A stretch of 64,000 nucleotides of DNA, taken from NCBI GenBank assembly GCA_035500675.1, contig DATJXA010000183.1:5949-69948 (forward strand), written 5' to 3'. The position numbers and the translations under genes were made by a program. The notes under the pieces were generated by a model, which was not told the origin of the DNA, did not search any database, and saw only the letters and a list, made by a program, of their open reading frames with translations. The DNA comes from Bacteroidota bacterium (GTDB lineage Bacteria > Bacteroidota > Ignavibacteria > UBA10030 > UBA8401). Position 1 is the stretch's first letter, and each line of letters starts with the position of its first letter. Of the stretch, positions 45,927 to 54,744 are shown one piece after another.

Positions 45927-47087
45927 ATGATTGCTAAGCTCGCCCTCGAAAACGGTACTGTGTTCACCGGAGAGAATTTTGGCGCGGAAGGCGAAATTTC
46001 CGGCGAAGTGGTTTTCAACACAAGCATCACCGGATACCAAGAAATTCTGACAGACCCGTCGTACGCGGGGCAAATCGTGACGATGACATATCCGTTAATC
46101 GGGAATTATGGCATTAACCTTCAGGATGTCGAGTCGTCGCGCCCGCAGGTTTCGGGATTCATCGTCCGCGAGTATTTCGACTTTTACAGCAATTGGCGGG
46201 CGACGTCGAGCCTTGGCGATTGGCTGAAGAAAAATAATATTATTGCGATCCAGGGGATCGACACACGCATGCTGACGAAAATGCTGCGAACCCTAGGAGC
46301 GCTTCGGGGAGTTCTCTCAACAAAGGACCTCGACGATGCAAGCCTCATCGAAAAGGCAAAAGCGTCGCCGGAAATGACCGGTCTCGACCTCGCGAAGAAT
46401 GTGACGTGCAAAACAAGCTACAAATGGGATGAGATCGACCGGACACCGTACGCGCTGCCTCCGCAAACGGCAGAGACCCATCACAACGGACGGCGATTCA
46501 AAGTAGCGGTATTCGATTACGGAGTGAAGCAGAATATTCTGCGGCGCCTGACGAGCTACGGGTGCGAATTGACCGTGGTTCCGGCGTCGTACACCGCGGA
46601 AGAAATTCTGGCAATGAACCCGGACGGGATCTTTCTCTCGAACGGTCCGGGCGACCCCGACGCCGTCAAGTACGCCATCCTCAACCTCAAAAAATTAATC
46701 GGCTCGAAACCGATGTTCGGCATCTGTCTCGGCCATCAACTCCTTGCGCTTGCTTTGGGCGGGAAGACGTATAAACTCAAATTCGGTCATCGGGGAGCCA
46801 ACCATCCGGTCAAAAATCTTCAGACGAACGAAATAGAGATCACTTCTCAGAACCACGGGTTTGCCGTCGACTGGAAAACAATGGACCGATCAAAAGTCGA
46901 ACTGACGCATATCAACCTCAACGACCAGACCGTGGAAGGATTTCAGCACAAGGAATTACCCCTCTTCTGCGTCCAGTACCATCCCGAAGCATCCCCAGGG
47001 CCGCACGACAGCGACTACCTTTTTGCGAAGTTTATTGCGCTAATGGAGAAGAACGTCATCGTTAAACAGAAAGTAGTCGTGCAGTGA
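45927..47087 (+). CDS. carA: Carbamoyl-phosphate synthase small (glutaminase) subunit
   Basis: 386 aa. [21 protein letters not shown], catalytic [21 protein letters not shown]. Confidence 0.96.
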
Positions 47088-47100
47088 GATTTTCGATTTG

Positions 47101-47248
47101 CAATTGCCGATTTACGATTGCCAATTGCAAATCGTAAATTGAAAATCAGTTCCCCCTCATAAAAATTCTTATCTATCTTACAATTGCCGATTTACGATTG
47201 CCAATTGCAAATCGTAAATTGAAAATCACTTCCCCTCCCCAAAAATTT
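47101..47248. repeat. Tandem duplication (80-bp period) of a hairpin-containing unit
   Basis: A 48-nt unit caattgccgatttacgattgccaattgcaaatcgtaaattgaaaatca is identical at 47101-47148 and 47181-47228. Each unit holds an atttacgat/atcgtaaat hairpin. The following ~20 nt are similar but diverged. Copy 2 contains the stop codon of the NYN gene. Confidence 0.9.
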
Positions 47249-47702
47249 TCAGCCATTCATCAACTTGTCCCTGCGATAAGCCGGCCGATTCTTTTTCCTC
47301 ACCTCTGTCATCCTCTTCGAACAACAGATTGCTGAAGTATTTTGCGGTGTGCGTCGTGCAGGAGCACGCTTTAGCGAAGTCGGTGATTTCCCTGTCGGAT
47401 GAGATGATGACGAGCAGCGTTCTGTTTTTCGATTGTTCGATCATCGATTTTATTTTTGCATCGGCGGAAAGAGGAGAAGCATACATAACGTGAACCGGAG
47501 AGTGGGTTTGTGACGTGCGTTGATCATGCGGCTTAACGCCGTCATAGACGACCGTGCAGCGGATTTTCCTTCGGAAGGTCATGCGCGCGACGAGGTCCAC
47601 GAGCTGCTCGCGCGCCTGAAAGCCGTCGTGTGCGAGAAGTTTCTTTAATGACGGGATCGCATGCATCAGGTTGTAGCCGTCGATGATGTAATGAGGGATC
47701 AT
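47226..47702 (-). CDS. NYN-domain ribonuclease-like protein (YacP/Rae1 family)
   Basis: 158 aa. MIPHYIIDGYNLMHAIPSLKKLL.. and ..VVYDG..VMYASPLSADAKI.. fit the YacP-like NYN pattern. Its ATG overlaps the stop of the K+ channel gene (ATGA). Confidence 0.75.
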   Translation of the reverse strand: MIPHYIIDGYNLMHAIPSLKKLLAHDGFQAREQLVDLVARMTFRRKIRCTVVYDGVKPHDQRTSQTHSPVHVMYASPLSADAKIKSMIEQSKNRTLLVIISSDREITDFAKACSCTTHTAKYFSNLLFEEDDRGEEKESAGLSQGQVDEWLKIFGEGK

Positions 47703-48691
47703 GCCGCCACTTTGTTTTCAACCCGTTCAAATTCGCTGAGACGACGAAGATCGACGCGCACGACGCCGTTTTCCGGCGTCAAGAACATATCGGAGAACTT
47801 CGCCCCGAAGACGACCTCGCCGTATTTGTACGACGACCGGCTATGGACCGTTTGAGAAAATGTTTCATCGATGGCGGTGAGCAAAATTGTAAACTCCGCA
47901 TCCGATGTGCGCAACTCTTCTTCCGTCACGCCGAACAAGGGGCTGTTCTCGTTGATCGGATGGACGATGGTCCAGTGAAGCGGGAAGAACGTGACTTTAT
48001 CCCTTTCGAGCGCCAGGGTATGAAACCGTCGCGTCTCTTTTCCATAGTGATTTTCTATTCTGCTCATCGACACCGTCGCCTCAACCTCGATAAGCTGATT
48101 CCGACGCTCGTTGACGATGCGGAACATAAATCCCGTAATTCCCCTGTATGGTCCGATGATCGCACTGTCGCTATACTTGATTTGTGCGTTCGGACGCGAG
48201 AAGCGCGCAAACAACAATCCTGTTGCGAGCGCAAACCCGAAAAGCCCTGCCAACGCCTCGAACGCTACGACGATATTCGCGGCGTATCCCGACGGATTCA
48301 TCTTGCCGTAGCCGATCGTCGCTACCGTCTGCACGCTGAAGAAAAAGGCGTCGAAAAATCGTCCGGCGAATGTCTCTCCCACCGATCCCTGCAGCGCGCC
48401 CGCCCCACACAACATGTATGCGCAGGCAAAGGCGACGTTGACGAGAAAGTACGAGAGGACCACCATCAAATAAAATTTTGTCCAGGACATATCGAGCAGT
48501 GCGTGGTAGGGGCTCAACGAATGGAAAAACGATTGCCCTGTCCGTTCGACGTTGAAGCTCCCGTTCTTATTAAGAAAACGGGTTTGAGTCTGCTGGATGA
48601 CTTTCGAACCCAGCCCGAAGTCTTTTGTGTCTTCCGGAGGGGGCGGCGAAGAGGTTTTTTTGACGGCCATAGTGCTCCTTAAGATGGTCAA
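47699..48691 (-). CDS. Inward-rectifier-type potassium channel (KirBac family)
   Basis: 330 aa. Two TMs flanking a pore helix with selectivity filter TVATIGYG. Cytoplasmic IRK C-domain (..FARFSRPNAQIKYSDSAII..). Confidence 0.85.
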   Translation of the reverse strand: MTILRSTMAVKKTSSPPPPEDTKDFGLGSKVIQQTQTRFLNKNGSFNVERTGQSFFHSLSPYHALLDMSWTKFYLMVVLSYFLVNVAFACAYMLCGAGALQGSVGETFAGRFFDAFFFSVQTVATIGYGKMNPSGYAANIVVAFEALAGLFGFALATGLLFARFSRPNAQIKYSDSAIIGPYRGITGFMFRIVNERRNQLIEVEATVSMSRIENHYGKETRRFHTLALERDKVTFFPLHWTIVHPINENSPLFGVTEEELRTSDAEFTILLTAIDETFSQTVHSRSSYKYGEVVFGAKFSDMFLTPENGVVRVDLRRLSEFERVENKVAA

Positions 48692-48736
48692 GAGTTTTGT
48701 AGAATGACGATTGCCGAATGGCTGATGTGAAATTCG

Positions 48737-51700
48737 TTAACGTAATTCGAATCGGATTGTCTGCGCCCGGTCGCGATAAAATCCAAGTGAACGGAAAGTT
48801 TCCGCGAGAGGACTTTCCGTCGGCCTGACGCCGTTACAATATTCAACAACAATTTCGCTTTCGTTTTTGTGCGAGGCGCGTACATGGGCTGCAAATTGCT
48901 GCAGGGATGATCGCAAAACGTCGGGCGCCGTTTCGTCAACGGTATAGATCCTGGCGCCAAAGCTTTCTATCCACAACACAGGCGATCCATGAAAAAATAC
49001 AAAATAATTGAGCGGATGGCGGGCAAACCGAACCCCCTCGGGAAATTTTGTCAACCCGGCTTCGATGCCGACGCCATATGGATTCGATGGATCGCATGCA
49101 TTGATGACAATAGGCGCTTCATTGTTCATTGTTAATTGTTCATTGTTAATTGACTTCAACACGTCGATCGCCGCCGGAAGAGCAAATTGCATTCCCGAAA
49201 GTCCCTCGACGAAATAGCCCCGCCGTATCTCTCCCCGCAACTCCATTCTTTGGAGCTCGAGAGCGAGAAGAGGCCATGGCAGGAGGTTCTCTTCCCGTTT
49301 TGCAATTTCCCTTGCGACGATGCCGTACCGCAGCAACAACTGTTGCGCCTGTCGCGATGCCCGCTCTTCAGGAGATACCTTCTCTCCGAGAACGCGGCGC
49401 GTATGAAGGATCGACCAGCGGCCGTTCCAGCCAGGACTCGAACGGATCGCCTTCCGCACGGAACTCATTGCGATCGATTTCAACGGGTTTCGTCGAGGGT
49501 TTAGCAATGTAATGCGCTCAGAAGGCAGAGGAGAATCGTCGCCAGTCCTGAATCGTTTGACGTTGAGCGCTTCATCGACGAGGTCGTTCGTGATAAGCCC
49601 GCTCCAGAATAATTCTGAGATCGCTCTGTTAACCGTTGACAGTGAAAAAGTCGTTCCTTCGCGAATGTCGGAAAGGAACGATGCACCGTTTGCCTTGAGA
49701 AAATCGTACAACTCTTGTGACGACGTCGCCCTTTCAGCAATTGCTTTTTCCATTTCATCCATAAAGTAAGCGCCATCTCCCTGAAACACCCATTGCGCTT
49801 TTCCCGACGAAACGCCTGCGCAAACGATTTCGCCTCTTGCGGCCATCGCGCGCAATTGCGCAGGGTCGTACTCGCTGATTCTGTGCAACAAAATTTCGCT
49901 TTCCCACAACTCCGCGTTCAACGCGAACCCTTCGAATTGTTCGAGGACCGACTGAATTCCAGTTTCGCCTTTTTCACGGGTAGCGGGGTCGCGATGCTGC
50001 CATTGCAGGAGAAACTTTGTGAAATGAGCGATGGTCGCCGGCTTTATTTCTTTTCGGAGGATCGAGATCGACGCTCGATGAATACGGTCGAGCGTTGGTC
50101 GGTAACACCACTCTGATCGATCGGAATCCGGAAGAAAAATACCACGAACAATCGCATCCTCCTCGGTAAAGGATCCGAGGATTGCATCGCATTCTTCGAC
50201 AGTCAGTCCATACCGTTCCGCAATACGCGCCGAGCTGATCGGGGTATGAGAACGGATCATCCTCCCGATGACATACCGAAGAGATTCTTCGCGCTTTAAC
50301 GGGCTCGTTCTGAATTCCTCGGGCAATGACGAGAGGGTCGCTGCATCCACGTCAGCAAAAGTAAGATAGATCGGCATCTCTTCCGAAGCGATGAAATACG
50401 TTGAGCCCTTGATCGAAACCGGTGCGATGGTCCCTTGAGCAGCCAGCTGTATTTTCAACTTGAGATCGTTCGTTGCCGACCGCTCCTCAATCTCCATCTC
50501 GGTGAGTTCTCCGATCCGGAGAAAGATCTCGAGCAATTCTTCGGGGGTACGGGCTTTGCGCGTCTCGGAAGTAAACTGGAGTTGCTCTTCAATCCGCAGT
50601 AAAGCATCCGGCTTGACCACCGATCGTACACTATCGAGATCGACAATCTCGGCCAGGAGTTCTCTGTTGAGTGCCCGTTGCTGGCTGGAGATCTCTCCCT
50701 TAGGTTGATCCCCCTCATAAATATAGACAGCGATGAAATCGAAGAGCACCGATGCGGCGAACGGAGACGGCATCTCGGATTGGACAGAGTGAACGACGAT
50801 CTCTCCCGATTCGATCCTGCCCATCACTTCTTTGAAGCGGTCGAAGTCGAGCGAGTCGTACAAACAGTCGCGGATCGTTTCGATGACGATTGGAAAATCG
50901 TCGTACGTTCTTACGATTTGCAGAAGATCGCCCGCGCGCAATCTCTGAAGCCAGAGAGGCGTTCGCTTTCCGATGCGCGCTTTCGGAAGCAAGAGCGCCC
51001 TCTCAGCGTTCTGGCGAAACAGCGAGCCGAAAAGGGGAGAAAACACAAGCTCCTCAAGGACGAGTTCCTGGGCTTTCGTTCTCGTGAGCCCGCTGAACAG
51101 GTCGAGGGGAAGTCGCTCCACGTCCGAACAGCGGAATAAAATGCCGTCGTCATTATAGAGCATTTGAATTTCGATGCCGAGTCGTTCTTTCAATTGATGG
51201 GAAAGCACAAGTCCGAGGAGTCCGTTCACCCTTCGCCCGAAACACGAATGGACGACGATCCGGGGGTCGCCAATTTCATCCCGGAATCCTTCGACGACGA
51301 TCGAGCGATGAGTAGGCAGATCTCTGGTTACCGCCTTTTGTTGCCCGATGTACTCGACGATATTCCGTGCGCTGTGCGCGTCGATGGGGAAATTTTCCAG
51401 CAGCCACTCGATTTTTTCTCCGTCTCTTTCGGCGACCTCTTCCATAAACTTCCCGAGCTTTTCTCCCAACTCGAACGAGCGGCCGATGCCCTCGCCTCTC
51501 CAGAACGGCATGCGTGCCGGTTGACCCGGCGCCGGACCGACGATGACTCTGTTCGCATCGATGGCGAGCATTTTCCAGACATTCGAGCCAAGGATGAAAG
51601 TGTCTCCAGATCGGCTCTCGTAAATGAACTCTTCGTCCACTTCGCCGATCTTCGTTTTGAGGTCCTCCAGGTACACGCCGAAGTATCCTCGGTCGGGGAT

Positions 51701-53362
51701 GGTTCCGGCGTTCGTAATGGCGAGATGCGACGACCCCGGAAGGGGAGAGAGCGAGCCGTGCACTTTGTCCCAGGAAATTCTGGGGCGGAGTTCGCGGAAG
51801 GCCTCGTTGGTATACCGTCCTGCGAGCATTTGAACGACGCCGGTAAAGATCTTTTTGGAAAGCGAACGATAACAATAGGATTGGCGGACGACGTCGAAAA
51901 GATCGTCGACGGTCCATTCCTCGACGCTCACCATCGACACGATCTGTTGCGCGAGAACGTCGAGGCAATCCTGCGGAACGTGGGTTTCTTCGATGGCATG
52001 GTCCATCATCTCCCGCGCAACCACGGTCGATTCGAGAAGGTCCTGCCGATGCGTCACGTACATGCGCCCCTTGCTTGTTGCGCTCACGAGATGACCCGAG
52101 CGCCCCACGCGCTGCAGTCCACGCGCAATGCCGTGCGGCGACTGGATCTGCACTACAAGGTCGATGCTGCCGATATCGATGCCGAGCTCAAGCGCCGACG
52201 TGGCGACCAGCACCTTCAATTTTCCCGCTTTAAGTTCAGACTCCATCTTCTCGCGTGCGGTCCGCGACATGCTGCCGTGGTACGCCTGGACTAAAAAGTC
52301 GGCCGCGCGCGTTGGCGCAGGAATCGCAGCCGGCGAAAACGGAACTGCATAGCCATTAAAAGTATGTTCCTGTCCTTGCAGAAGTTCGTTCAGCGTTGCA
52401 GCAACGCGCTCAGCAAGCCGCCGGTTGTTGACAAAGATCAAAGTGGTATTGTGAGCGTAGATCGCGTCGAGAAGTTGCGGAAAAATAAGGGACCAAATGC
52501 TGTCCGTCGGCAATTCGGAAAAATCCTGGACAACGCATGTCACCTGCAGGTCCATCTTCTTTTTGTAGCCGGCGTCGATGATGGTCACCTCGCGTGGTGT
52601 CAGCGTGCCGTTCCGCCATTCTTGTCCCCCCAGAAACCGAGCGATCGTTTCGAGCGGGCGCTGAGTCGCCGACAAGCCGATCCGCACAAAAGATGAAGCA
52701 GCGACGCGTTCGAGCCGTTCCAACGACAGCGATAAATGGACGCCCCGTTTATTTCCGCTGACGGAATGGATCTCGTCCACAATCACGTACTGCAGCGTGG
52801 AAAATAAATGCCTCGCTCGTTGGGACGAGAGCATCAGGTAAAGCGATTCCGGCGTTGTGATAAGGATGTCGGGAGGGTTCTTTAAAATTGCCGCGCGCTC
52901 GGCCTGTGTCGTGTCTCCTGTGCGAACTGCGCTTCGAAGTTTTGGAAAATGCAATCCCCGCGCAATCGCTTCTTCGTGAATCCCTTTTAACGGAAGTTCG
53001 AGATTCCGATGAATGTCGTTGTTAAGGGCTTTGAGTGGAGAGATGTAGAGGACGCGGATCCCGGTATTTTTTTTATCTGCGCCGTCTCTCAGCGTACGAT
53101 TTTTCTTTTTATCGGGACGAAGGGACGGGTCATTTTCTTCGGCGCCGTGTTCCTCGATCGACTCTTCGACAAGGTGATTGATGCACCATAAAAATGCCGC
53201 AAGCGTTTTTCCCGAGCCGGTCGGCGCAACGATGAGAGTGTTTTTCCCCGCGGCGATGGAGGGCCAACCGAGTTTCTGGGGGGCGCTCGCTTCGCCGAAA
53301 GTTCGGGGAAACCATGTGCGCACGACAGGATGAAACGCTGCGAGCGCATCTTCGTTAATCAT
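48737..53362 (-). CDS. lhr: Large ATP-dependent helicase Lhr (full-length, with C-terminal extension)
   Basis: 1541 aa. N-terminus ..FHPVVRTWFPRTFGEASAPQKLGWPSIAAGKNTLIVAPTGSGKTL, DEIH box (VIVDEIHSV), GLSATQ, AYHGSMS. Length and layout match E. coli-type Lhr. Confidence 0.9.
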   Translation of the reverse strand: MINEDALAAFHPVVRTWFPRTFGEASAPQKLGWPSIAAGKNTLIVAPTGSGKTLAAFLWCINHLVEESIEEHGAEENDPSLRPDKKKNRTLRDGADKKNTGIRVLYISPLKALNNDIHRNLELPLKGIHEEAIARGLHFPKLRSAVRTGDTTQAERAAILKNPPDILITTPESLYLMLSSQRARHLFSTLQYVIVDEIHSVSGNKRGVHLSLSLERLERVAASSFVRIGLSATQRPLETIARFLGGQEWRNGTLTPREVTIIDAGYKKKMDLQVTCVVQDFSELPTDSIWSLIFPQLLDAIYAHNTTLIFVNNRRLAERVAATLNELLQGQEHTFNGYAVPFSPAAIPAPTRAADFLVQAYHGSMSRTAREKMESELKAGKLKVLVATSALELGIDIGSIDLVVQIQSPHGIARGLQRVGRSGHLVSATSKGRMYVTHRQDLLESTVVAREMMDHAIEETHVPQDCLDVLAQQIVSMVSVEEWTVDDLFDVVRQSYCYRSLSKKIFTGVVQMLAGRYTNEAFRELRPRISWDKVHGSLSPLPGSSHLAITNAGTIPDRGYFGVYLEDLKTKIGEVDEEFIYESRSGDTFILGSNVWKMLAIDANRVIVGPAPGQPARMPFWRGEGIGRSFELGEKLGKFMEEVAERDGEKIEWLLENFPIDAHSARNIVEYIGQQKAVTRDLPTHRSIVVEGFRDEIGDPRIVVHSCFGRRVNGLLGLVLSHQLKERLGIEIQMLYNDDGILFRCSDVERLPLDLFSGLTRTKAQELVLEELVFSPLFGSLFRQNAERALLLPKARIGKRTPLWLQRLRAGDLLQIVRTYDDFPIVIETIRDCLYDSLDFDRFKEVMGRIESGEIVVHSVQSEMPSPFAASVLFDFIAVYIYEGDQPKGEISSQQRALNRELLAEIVDLDSVRSVVKPDALLRIEEQLQFTSETRKARTPEELLEIFLRIGELTEMEIEERSATNDLKLKIQLAAQGTIAPVSIKGSTYFIASEEMPIYLTFADVDAATLSSLPEEFRTSPLKREESLRYVIGRMIRSHTPISSARIAERYGLTVEECDAILGSFTEEDAIVRGIFLPDSDRSEWCYRPTLDRIHRASISILRKEIKPATIAHFTKFLLQWQHRDPATREKGETGIQSVLEQFEGFALNAELWESEILLHRISEYDPAQLRAMAARGEIVCAGVSSGKAQWVFQGDGAYFMDEMEKAIAERATSSQELYDFLKANGASFLSDIREGTTFSLSTVNRAISELFWSGLITNDLVDEALNVKRFRTGDDSPLPSERITLLNPRRNPLKSIAMSSVRKAIRSSPGWNGRWSILHTRRVLGEKVSPEERASRQAQQLLLRYGIVAREIAKREENLLPWPLLALELQRMELRGEIRRGYFVEGLSGMQFALPAAIDVLKSINNEQLTMNNEAPIVINACDPSNPYGVGIEAGLTKFPEGVRFARHPLNYFVFFHGSPVLWIESFGARIYTVDETAPDVLRSSLQQFAAHVRASHKNESEIVVEYCNGVRPTESPLAETFRSLGFYRDRAQTIRFELR

Positions 53363-53413
53363 TGTGTAAAAGTAAGTATTGGGTATGGGAAGAACAAGAG
53401 CGGGTGGTGACGC

Positions 53414-53459
53414 TTTCGGAAAACAAAAACCTTCCGAAGGGTTGAAACCTTCGGAAGGT
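53414..53459 (-). terminator. Intrinsic terminator of the REC-HK gene
   Basis: Perfect 13-bp stem aaccttccgaagg (53427-53439) / ccttcggaaggtt (53447-53459). On the minus strand it is followed by TTTTTGTTTT. It starts at the stop codon. Confidence 0.8.
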
Positions 53460-54556
53460 TACGATGATGTCGCCCTCGGCAGGCGCACGGTGACACTTGT
53501 TCCGGTTCCGTAGTCGCTTTGGATGCTGAGCGAGCCGCCATGCATCTCGGTGAGGCGCTTGGCGACGGTGAGACCGAGACCCGAGCCTTGTTGCTCGTAC
53601 ACCTTCCGGTCGAACTGCACGTACGCCTCAATCCCGTCGATTTGCTCGCGCGTCATGCCCCTCCCGTGGTCGATCACCATGAGCAGCAGGGCGTCGTCGG
53701 CAGCCACCGTCCCGAAATAGACCGGCGTTCCTTTTGCGGAATAACGAAAAGCGTTGTCGCCGATCTCTTCGACGATCTTTGCGAAGTACTGAGGGGACAT
53801 CGCGACGGTGAAGGGAGTGACATGGAGATCGAGGTCGTCTGTTCTGCCGTTTTCCTGCGCTTTCTCACGCGCAAGTTCTTCGATGGTGTTTGCGACCTCC
53901 GTGCTGCTGTGTCGCAGCAGATCTTTCTGATGGTCGTCGAGAGGTTGAGCGCCGATCTGCGCAAAAATAAGATAATTTTCGACTAGCCGGAGGAGGCGTT
54001 TTCCGTTACGATAAATTCGTTCGGACATCTTTGCGATTTCCTGCGGCTGTAAATTCTGATAATCTTTGCGCATGATGTCGGCAAAGCCGAGGATGCCGTT
54101 GAGAGGAGTGCGCAGCTCGTGAGGAATGGCCGTACTCATGCGAGCACGAAGCTCTTGCAATTTTTCTTCCGCTTTCGCCGTAAGGAGTTTGTGTTTTTTC
54201 AGCCTTGCGTTTACGGACGAGATAAGCTCAGGCGACGTGAACGGTTTGGGCAGATAGTCATCGGCCCCTAATTCCATTCCTTGTCTCATTCCCTTGAGCC
54301 CGGCATTGCTCGTCATGAGGATGAACGGGATGGACGCCGTCACTGAATCGTTGCGGATTGCCGCGAGCAGTTGATAGCCGTTGACCAATTCCATCCTGAT
54401 GTCGCAGACAATGAGATCGGGAAGCATTGTACGGGCAAGCTCGAGCCCCTCGCTTCCATTCTTTGCGCCAATCGCTTCGAACCCGTTTGTACGGAGAATT
54501 GCGATGGTCGAATCTCGCAAAGAATCTTCATCGTCGATGACTAAAATCTTGGTCAT
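53459..54556 (-). CDS. Response-regulator receiver fused to a histidine kinase (REC-HisKA-HATPase)
   Basis: Start taken at MTKILVIDDEDSL (54556). The track ORF extends to 54592. REC Asp in LIVCDIRM, H-box PHELRTPLN, G-box QGSGLGLTVAKRL. Confidence 0.88.
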   Translation of the reverse strand: MTKILVIDDEDSLRDSTIAILRTNGFEAIGAKNGSEGLELARTMLPDLIVCDIRMELVNGYQLLAAIRNDSVTASIPFILMTSNAGLKGMRQGMELGADDYLPKPFTSPELISSVNARLKKHKLLTAKAEEKLQELRARMSTAIPHELRTPLNGILGFADIMRKDYQNLQPQEIAKMSERIYRNGKRLLRLVENYLIFAQIGAQPLDDHQKDLLRHSSTEVANTIEELAREKAQENGRTDDLDLHVTPFTVAMSPQYFAKIVEEIGDNAFRYSAKGTPVYFGTVAADDALLLMVIDHGRGMTREQIDGIEAYVQFDRKVYEQQGSGLGLTVAKRLTEMHGGSLSIQSDYGTGTSVTVRLPRATSS

Positions 54557-54744
54557 TGCGGATATACGCTGTGTTTCGCGATCATGTTGCAATTATTGAG
54601 AAGCTACGGAGGAAAAATTAGTATCGATGCCGTTTAGAAACGGAAACGAACCCCGATTGCCGGACAAAAAAATTGTTTTGGGAAAAGGCTTTTTAACTTT
54701 GCAGGTGGATAGCCAACAAGGCATTCCCGCTGTAGTCAATTTAG

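Follow-up and report, generated by a model that had tools for sequence, protein, structure and literature searches.

A KirBac-type channel gene between lhr and a YacP/Rae1-type ribonuclease gene: a lineage-specific gene order in one family of Ignavibacteriales

The locus described here lies in a 64,000-nucleotide stretch of the genome of an uncultured Ignavibacteriales bacterium (class Ignavibacteria, phylum Bacteroidota in GTDB terms; assembly GCA_035500675.1, 3.3 Mb in 183 contigs; contig DATJXA010000183.1, positions 5,949 to 69,948), which we call the window and to which all coordinates refer. On its minus strand, three genes lie in series: lhr (48737-53362), encoding a helicase; kir (47699-48670), encoding a KirBac-type inward-rectifier K+ channel; and a gene for a YacP/Rae1-like NYN endoribonuclease (47226-47702), here called NYN. 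An earlier sequence-only reading had described such a series as an apparent operon, and both the open reading frames (ORFs) and, by Pfam, the three identities are as it had proposed. Each of the three genes adds a member to a family already known, and their order is a lineage-specific curiosity, which we follow here through the family of the host bacterium (the host family) and beyond it.

The lhr product (1541 aa; Pfam and NCBIfam assignments) is a full-length Lhr helicase, comprising the Lhr-Core and the long winged-helix C-terminal domain, and by this architecture looks functional. The core is represented by PF00270 (DEAD), PF00271 (Helicase_C), PF19306 (WH_Lhr, 155 bits) and PF08494 (DEAD_assoc, 177 bits), and the C-terminal domain by PF23235 and PF23234 (WH3_Lhr and WH4_Lhr), with PF23236 annotated on an identical public Lhr protein. 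Residues 9-1529 align with positions 14-1529 of the 1538-position NCBIfam model NF007284 at 954 bits, the equivalog cut-off being 1496 bits. The protein also matches the PADLOC models for the defence helicases DpdJ (PDLC02897, 734 bits), SngC and BrxH, because those are Lhr-like helicases of common ancestry. An ordinary chromosomal Lhr can set off PDLC02897, and false Dpd calls are possible.

The channel gene likely starts at ATG 48670, after an AAGGAG at 48675-48680, rather than at the TTG at 48691 chosen in the sequence-only reading; homologues align from residues 1-4 of the resulting 323-aa product, which is also called on four public metagenome contigs. The product is encoded by the sole IRK_C gene of the host genome. 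A two-transmembrane (two-TM) pore domain with a pore helix (IRK, PF01007, 31.5 bits; Ion_trans_2, PF07885, 37.5 bits; both over their cut-offs) is joined to a Kir-type cytoplasmic domain (IRK_C, PF17655, 79.8 bits, residues 171-326). The selectivity filter reads TIGYG (residues 118-122), with T118, G120, Y121 and G122 invariant in 13 diverse homologues. Judged by its sequence, the channel looks functional, and K+ conduction and rectification are predicted.

The 158-aa NYN protein is the product of the only PF05991 gene in the host genome. It matches PF05991 (NYN_YacP) with 73.5 bits (cut-off 24.6) over profile positions 2-138 of 166, and aligns with the Bacillus subtilis YacP/Rae1 structures 5MQ8 and 5MQ9, in which the corresponding Asp residues of YacP line up with D8 and D81. 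In active NYN_YacP nucleases the first Asp is followed by a GYN motif, and the active site has four or more conserved Asp residues (PMC5499597). The protein has the motif IIDGYN, and all 51 homologues from the phylum Bacteroidota keep D8, D54, D81, D103 and N11, while 88% of them keep G9. The catalytic Asp residues, whose loss the sequence-only reading had set against its own proposal, are all kept, and the protein looks intact and functional as a nuclease. The Firmicute-type context with mrnC and rlmB (yacO), which is typical of NYN_YacP/Rae1 genes and not defining for them, is absent. NYN lies here among lhr, kir and carA, and in related genera it is accompanied by amidase, kir, CDF-like and MntR genes.

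The three genes form an array with clear boundaries. Upstream of lhr, an ORF at 53459-54592 encodes Response_reg, HisKA and HATPase_c domains (Pfam), and this response-regulator/histidine-kinase gene is followed on the minus strand by an intrinsic terminator at 53428-53460 (13-bp stem with 7 GC pairs, 7-nt loop, then TTTGTTTT), which forms the 5′ limit of the lhr transcription unit. The terminator is of textbook form, with its 13-bp stem and T-run, and lies directly after the kinase gene, about 65 nt before the lhr ATG; judging by this element, rho-independent terminators are in use in the host genome. The 65 nt between it and the lhr ATG (53363-53427, minus strand) presumably hold the promoter and leader. 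This interval has a TACTTTTA motif just 5′ of the lhr ATG, and a scan of it for the sigma-70 consensus gave no match.

Within the array, the minus-strand spacer between lhr and the channel gene (48671-48736) carries the AAGGAG as its Shine-Dalgarno sequence; folding of this spacer gave no hairpin [minimum free energy (MFE) -9 kcal/mol, z = 0.12], and the scan gave no terminator-like site in it. With ATG 48670 as the likely channel start, the gap is therefore 66 nt, and of the earlier claim of a 45-bp gap free of hairpins the second part stands and the length probably does not. An ATGA at 47699-47702 on the minus strand serves both as the end of the channel gene (TGA) and as the start of NYN (ATG), just as the sequence-only reading had seen, and neither a terminator-like site nor a stable hairpin was found at this junction. 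At the other end of the array, the region from NYN to the convergent carA gene (47095-47235, minus strand) is strongly structured (MFE -40.2 kcal/mol, z = -4.87) and holds a 48-nt hairpin unit twice in identical form (47101-47148 and 47181-47228); the second copy contributes the final NYN codons. A dispersed repeat was considered for this unit and rejected, its 28-nt core occurring only at the two local sites in the whole 3.3-Mb genome; the paired units are a local tandem duplication. The structured element is likely a bidirectional terminator or stabiliser. The plus-strand carA (45927-47087; carbamoyl-phosphate synthase small subunit, with CPSase_sm_chain and GATase annotated on identical public contigs) marks the 3′ boundary of the array. 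One strand, spacers of 66 nt and -4 nt, no internal terminator, and a terminator or structured element at either end are the sequence features of an operon, and the GC content of the array is similar to that of its flanks. The array is in this sense operon-like, as claimed earlier, and lhr, kir and NYN are probably co-transcribed as one unit.

How far the pairing of channel and RNase reaches was assessed first among the relatives of the host. Within the host family, NYN_YacP occurs in 34 of 37 genomes and Kir in 23, and none of the 23 has Kir without NYN. In 20 of these 23, the channel gene directly precedes NYN; they are all 12 Kir-bearing species of the window's genus and members of four other genera; in three genomes of one further genus they lie on different contigs. 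Junctions were measured at 23 loci spanning about 50% protein divergence, and 18 of the 20 cleanly measured values fall between -4 and +17 nt, with one of +63 nt and one clear mis-extension. The spacer between lhr and kir is loose, at 35-464 nt among species of the window's genus: it is 464 nt in one congener (G003) and 334 nt in another (G001), as against 35-66 nt in the others. The long spacers were searched for remnants of an amidase gene, and none was found. Because the spacer reaches 464 nt, a separate promoter for kir and NYN is possible in that congener.

Beyond the host family, the pairing was found in none of the genomes surveyed. Only 1 of 24 genomes from elsewhere in the order has NYN, and Kir occurs there in several families. 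When the coordinates of PF05991 and PF17655 were compared across 401 genomes sampled from the phylum, PF05991 was present in 145 genomes and Kir in 73; just three genomes outside the host family carry both, each time on separate contigs. We also scanned 185,579 species genomes with a Kir alignment and examined the best 80 loci for NYN by hidden Markov model with a reach of 4 kb. These 80 loci come from Ignavibacteria, Acidobacteriota, Gemmatimonadota, Zixibacteria, KSB1 and others, and NYN lies within 4 kb in only six of them, all from the host family's clades; among 50 of these Kir-bearing genomes, all outside the adjacency clade, 13 have NYN elsewhere in the genome. Taking the phylum sample and the genomes of the Kir loci together, kir and NYN are adjacent in none of the 16 genomes outside the host family that have both genes. 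Independent recurrence was looked for by these surveys, and no case outside the host family emerged. A Kir-NYN fusion was sought with a concatenated query against 5.8 billion proteins, and the best 120 matches, which cover close relatives only, were all Kir alone. Our literature search found no paper linking KirBac with NYN or YacP. In total, the two genes are neighbours in 20/23 genomes of the host family that carry both and in 0/16 such genomes outside it.

Whether the adjacency arose once was approached with phylogenies of the channel. In a tree of 45 Kir sequences, the channels of the window's genus group with those of other families (Shimodaira-Hasegawa-like approximate likelihood ratio test, SH-aLRT, 95), a placement that hinted at two independent insertions of kir beside NYN. 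Neither monophyly of the NYN-adjacent channels (p = 0.165) nor monophyly of the host family's channels (p = 0.25) was rejected by the approximately unbiased (AU) test. A larger tree of 118 sequences places all NYN-adjacent channels in one weakly supported clade (SH-aLRT 80); four channels that are not next to NYN, among them those of the genus in which kir and NYN lie apart, fall in it too. The simplest reading of these trees would be one origin of the adjacency followed by losses. With channels of Acidobacteriota (Vicinamibacteria and Terriglobia) the window's channel shares about 60% identity, as against 47-57% with the NYN-adjacent channels of other host-family genera, a pattern that suggests that soil bacteria have exchanged Kir genes or that rates are very uneven. 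Since the nearest relatives outside the genus include Acidobacteriota, transfer of this kind is plausible.

In the NYN phylogeny, host-family NYN proteins form one clade (SH-aLRT 96), in which the window's genus and a Kir-less genus are sisters. Kir-adjacent NYN proteins, which have no extra domain, are interleaved with Kir-less ones, and 11 host-family genomes have NYN without Kir. Because G002, the sole Kir-less species of the window's genus, is nested among Kir-bearing species and another genus is mixed, the tree implies several losses of kir with NYN kept. In G002, the lhr TGA overlaps the NYN ATG (...GAG TTA CGA TGA), which is the same ATGA device, and lhr and NYN are separated by 1-2 nt in three sister-genus genomes. 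The upstream gap of NYN is smallest where the neighbour is kir or lhr; an amidase gene lies 85 nt upstream in one other genus, and gaps of 50-275 nt occur in a minority of genomes. NYN therefore appears to be close to, and in most genomes translationally coupled with, whatever gene lies upstream, to judge from the spacing. A 2.0-Mb host-family genome (G019) is set apart: its NYN is 35% identical to that of the window and falls outside the host-family NYN clade, the upstream neighbour is on the opposite strand, neither lhr nor kir is nearby, and carA is still convergent. This NYN may be a replacement by a foreign copy.

A wider gene block surrounds NYN across the family. In other host-family genera the order is lhr, an exported amidase gene, in some cases a methyltransferase or glutamine-synthetase-like gene, kir, NYN, a CDF-like gene, a DtxR/MntR repressor gene and Nramp/Feo genes; lhr lies zero to three genes upstream of NYN in six genera. 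An MntR gene is found downstream of NYN in six genera, and is thus a wider association than that of kir upstream. In three of these six, a gene for a short CDF-like membrane protein intervenes, and in most Nramp-Usp or FeoA/FeoB follow (MntR-type loci at L061:4636-8403, L063:3904-9112 and equivalents in related genera). NYN nucleases are metal-dependent, with a one-metal-ion prediction cited in PMC5499597, and an RNase gene inside a Mn/Fe homeostasis cluster may merit attention for that reason. In the window's genus, the amidase and metal genes are gone from the block and carA now converges on NYN. Given this order across genera, the adjacency of kir and NYN is part of a synteny that extends through the family and joins genes of unrelated function.

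Our data are probably best explained by inherited packing of the three genes, with no dedicated K+/RNase machine behind their order. We favour this explanation because the arrangement belongs to a single lineage in which the channel was repeatedly lost and NYN re-coupled to lhr, and because elsewhere channels occur without NYN and NYN without channels, while the unrelated block is conserved at least as widely. The family ancestor would have carried its sole YacP/Rae1-type gene inside a mixed block of lhr, secreted amidase, kir, NYN, CDF-like, MntR and Nramp/Feo genes. NYN is usually the distal gene of a co-directional array, its upstream partner being kir here, lhr after deletion of kir, and the amidase gene in one genus, and the channel gene is an accessory one that is patchily distributed and can be dispensed with. 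Each protein would then likely do its usual separate job, as predicted from its family: Lhr as a 3′-5′ translocase in nucleic-acid repair, KirBac as a K+ conductor, and NYN as a cleaver of mRNA on stalled or collided ribosomes, like Rae1. The sequence-only reading had offered fortuitous packing as one of three options, and of the three it fits best. Its other suggestions, K+-gated control of RNA or ribosome quality control and a stress or defence module, fare poorly against a linkage confined to one family, a channel repeatedly lost, and the lack of any defence match for Kir or NYN.

Several observations weigh against inherited packing. The kir-NYN pair stays together, with an overlap or a gap of at most 17 nt, in three upstream and two downstream contexts, and the flanks of the lhr...kir-NYN group differ between the window's genus and the other genera. 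Such tightness under changing flanks, the main point against inherited packing, is a classical signature of a functionally linked pair. In addition, a second insertion of kir at the same site upstream of NYN in the window's genus may have occurred, the Kir tree being poorly resolved.

An alternative is that the meaningful link is that of Lhr with NYN, as a helicase-nuclease pair like rnt-lhr, lhr-nei2 and lhr-core-MPE, into which Kir was inserted as a passenger. Bacterial lhr genes often adjoin a nuclease gene (PMC7437997, PMC9841417, PMC7826289), and the overlapping or abutting lhr and NYN genes of the kir-less G002 and the three sister-genus genomes, like the short distance between lhr and NYN in six genera, are what this alternative leads one to expect. 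However, amidase, methyltransferase and glutamine-synthetase-like genes and kir intervene in other genera, at least three genera (g7, g8 and g9), and possibly a fourth (g10), have NYN with no lhr nearby, and in none of 21 genomes of other families does Lhr lie within 7 kb of NYN. The presumed activities also diverge, Rae1-type enzymes cutting mRNA on ribosomes and Lhr being tied to DNA repair. We therefore regard a dedicated Lhr-NYN pair as unlikely. The helicase-RNase precedent of rnt-lhr, invoked in the sequence-only reading, is a fair analogy for a link that is likewise restricted to the host family.

A second alternative is a true functional partnership of Kir and NYN in the host family, with the two kept at a fixed ratio by translational coupling and the RNase tethered to or regulated by the cytoplasmic domain of the channel, or with channel activity (K+ status) tuning the rescue of stalled ribosomes. 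The adjacency kept in 20 of 23 genomes, the narrow range of 18 of 20 junctions across about 50% protein divergence, and the persistence of the pair as its upstream and downstream neighbours change all count in its favour. A physiological connection can also be imagined, since ribosomes require K+ to function and stalled or collided ribosomes are where Rae1 acts (PMC12407103, PMC13622287); a recent link of Rae1-type RNases to ribosome-collision rescue comes from a preprint (PMC13622287). A functional pair is nevertheless hard to reconcile with the 0/16 adjacency in co-occurring genomes outside the family, with the 11 host-family genomes that have NYN alone and the three that keep both genes apart, and with the commonness of Kir without NYN in sister families, Acidobacteriota and Gemmatimonadota. 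The two genes are not gained or lost together, no fusion appears among the best 120 matches, and Kir-adjacent NYN proteins carry no extra domain and do not separate from Kir-less ones in the tree. We consider such a pair similarly unlikely, and give little credence to the specific proposal that the channel's cytoplasmic domain recruits or gates the cell's only Rae1-type RNase and so ties K+ status to stalled-ribosome rescue. If true, this would be a first case of a bacterial Kir channel with a physiological partner.

NYN nucleases and membrane channels act as effectors in some defence systems, and Lhr matches the DpdJ, SngC and BrxH models, but a stress or anti-phage abortive module, with the helicase as sensor, the RNase as effector and the channel as membrane effector, is highly improbable and was set aside: Kir and NYN match no PADLOC model, the DpdJ match reflects common Lhr ancestry with no other dpd or brx genes nearby, the GC content is like that of the flanks in a stable chromosomal synteny free of mobile-element genes, and NYN, as the sole YacP homologue and near-universal in the family, is distributed as expected of a housekeeping gene. 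A CRISPR-associated NYN has been described elsewhere (10.1101/2024.04.08.588522).

Inherited packing remains the explanation that we prefer, and it tempers what can be drawn from the locus. Little is known of what Kir channels do in bacterial physiology, and a real Kir-RNase link would have been a useful lead; the survey takes away most of that promise, the pairing being a single family's inherited order in which the channel is often dispensable. What is gained is an intact YacP/Rae1 homologue in a family of Ignavibacteriales, a NYN gene that is the distal, closely spaced member of its array in most host-family genomes and is precisely re-coupled to lhr after deletion of kir, and one more lineage-specific nuclease neighbour for Lhr. 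The lesson is that tight coupling and conservation within one family are weak evidence for a common function.

Among known systems, the channel shares with KirBac3.1 and KirBac1.1 the TIGYG filter, the two-TM pore and the IRK_C cytoplasmic domain, and is collinear over its full length with the KirBac3.1 structures (E about 1e-65; residues 29-314 against 11-293 of 301). It differs from them in a Pro-rich N-terminal tail of about 25 aa and in its position between lhr and NYN with a stop codon overlapping the NYN start, a context that the literature searched does not describe.

The NYN protein resembles Rae1/YacP of B. subtilis (PF05991; 5MQ8, 5MQ9) in its D-G-Y-N motif, four invariant Asp residues, single domain and similar size, with about 30% identity over residues 6-96 as estimated by eye from the alignment. 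It is encoded beside lhr and kir, or in a metal-homeostasis block, and not beside tRNA- or rRNA-processing genes, and it occurs in the Ignavibacteria, a group that is not named in the Rae1 papers PMC10351889 and PMC13622287.

Among the Lhr-nuclease operons, finally, the partner of the helicase is RNase T in Escherichia coli (rnt-lhr), Nei2 in mycobacteria (lhr-nei2) and MPE in Pseudomonas (lhr-core-MPE), whereas here it is a NYN RNase, and unrelated genes intervene in most genera of the one family to which the lhr-NYN link is restricted. The Lhr protein itself is of nearly the same length as that of E. coli (1541 against 1538 aa). The likeness lies in a full-length Lhr that is co-directional with a gene of nuclease fold, and in kir-less relatives of the host lhr and NYN overlap (PMC7437997, PMC9841417, PMC7826289, PMC8053096).

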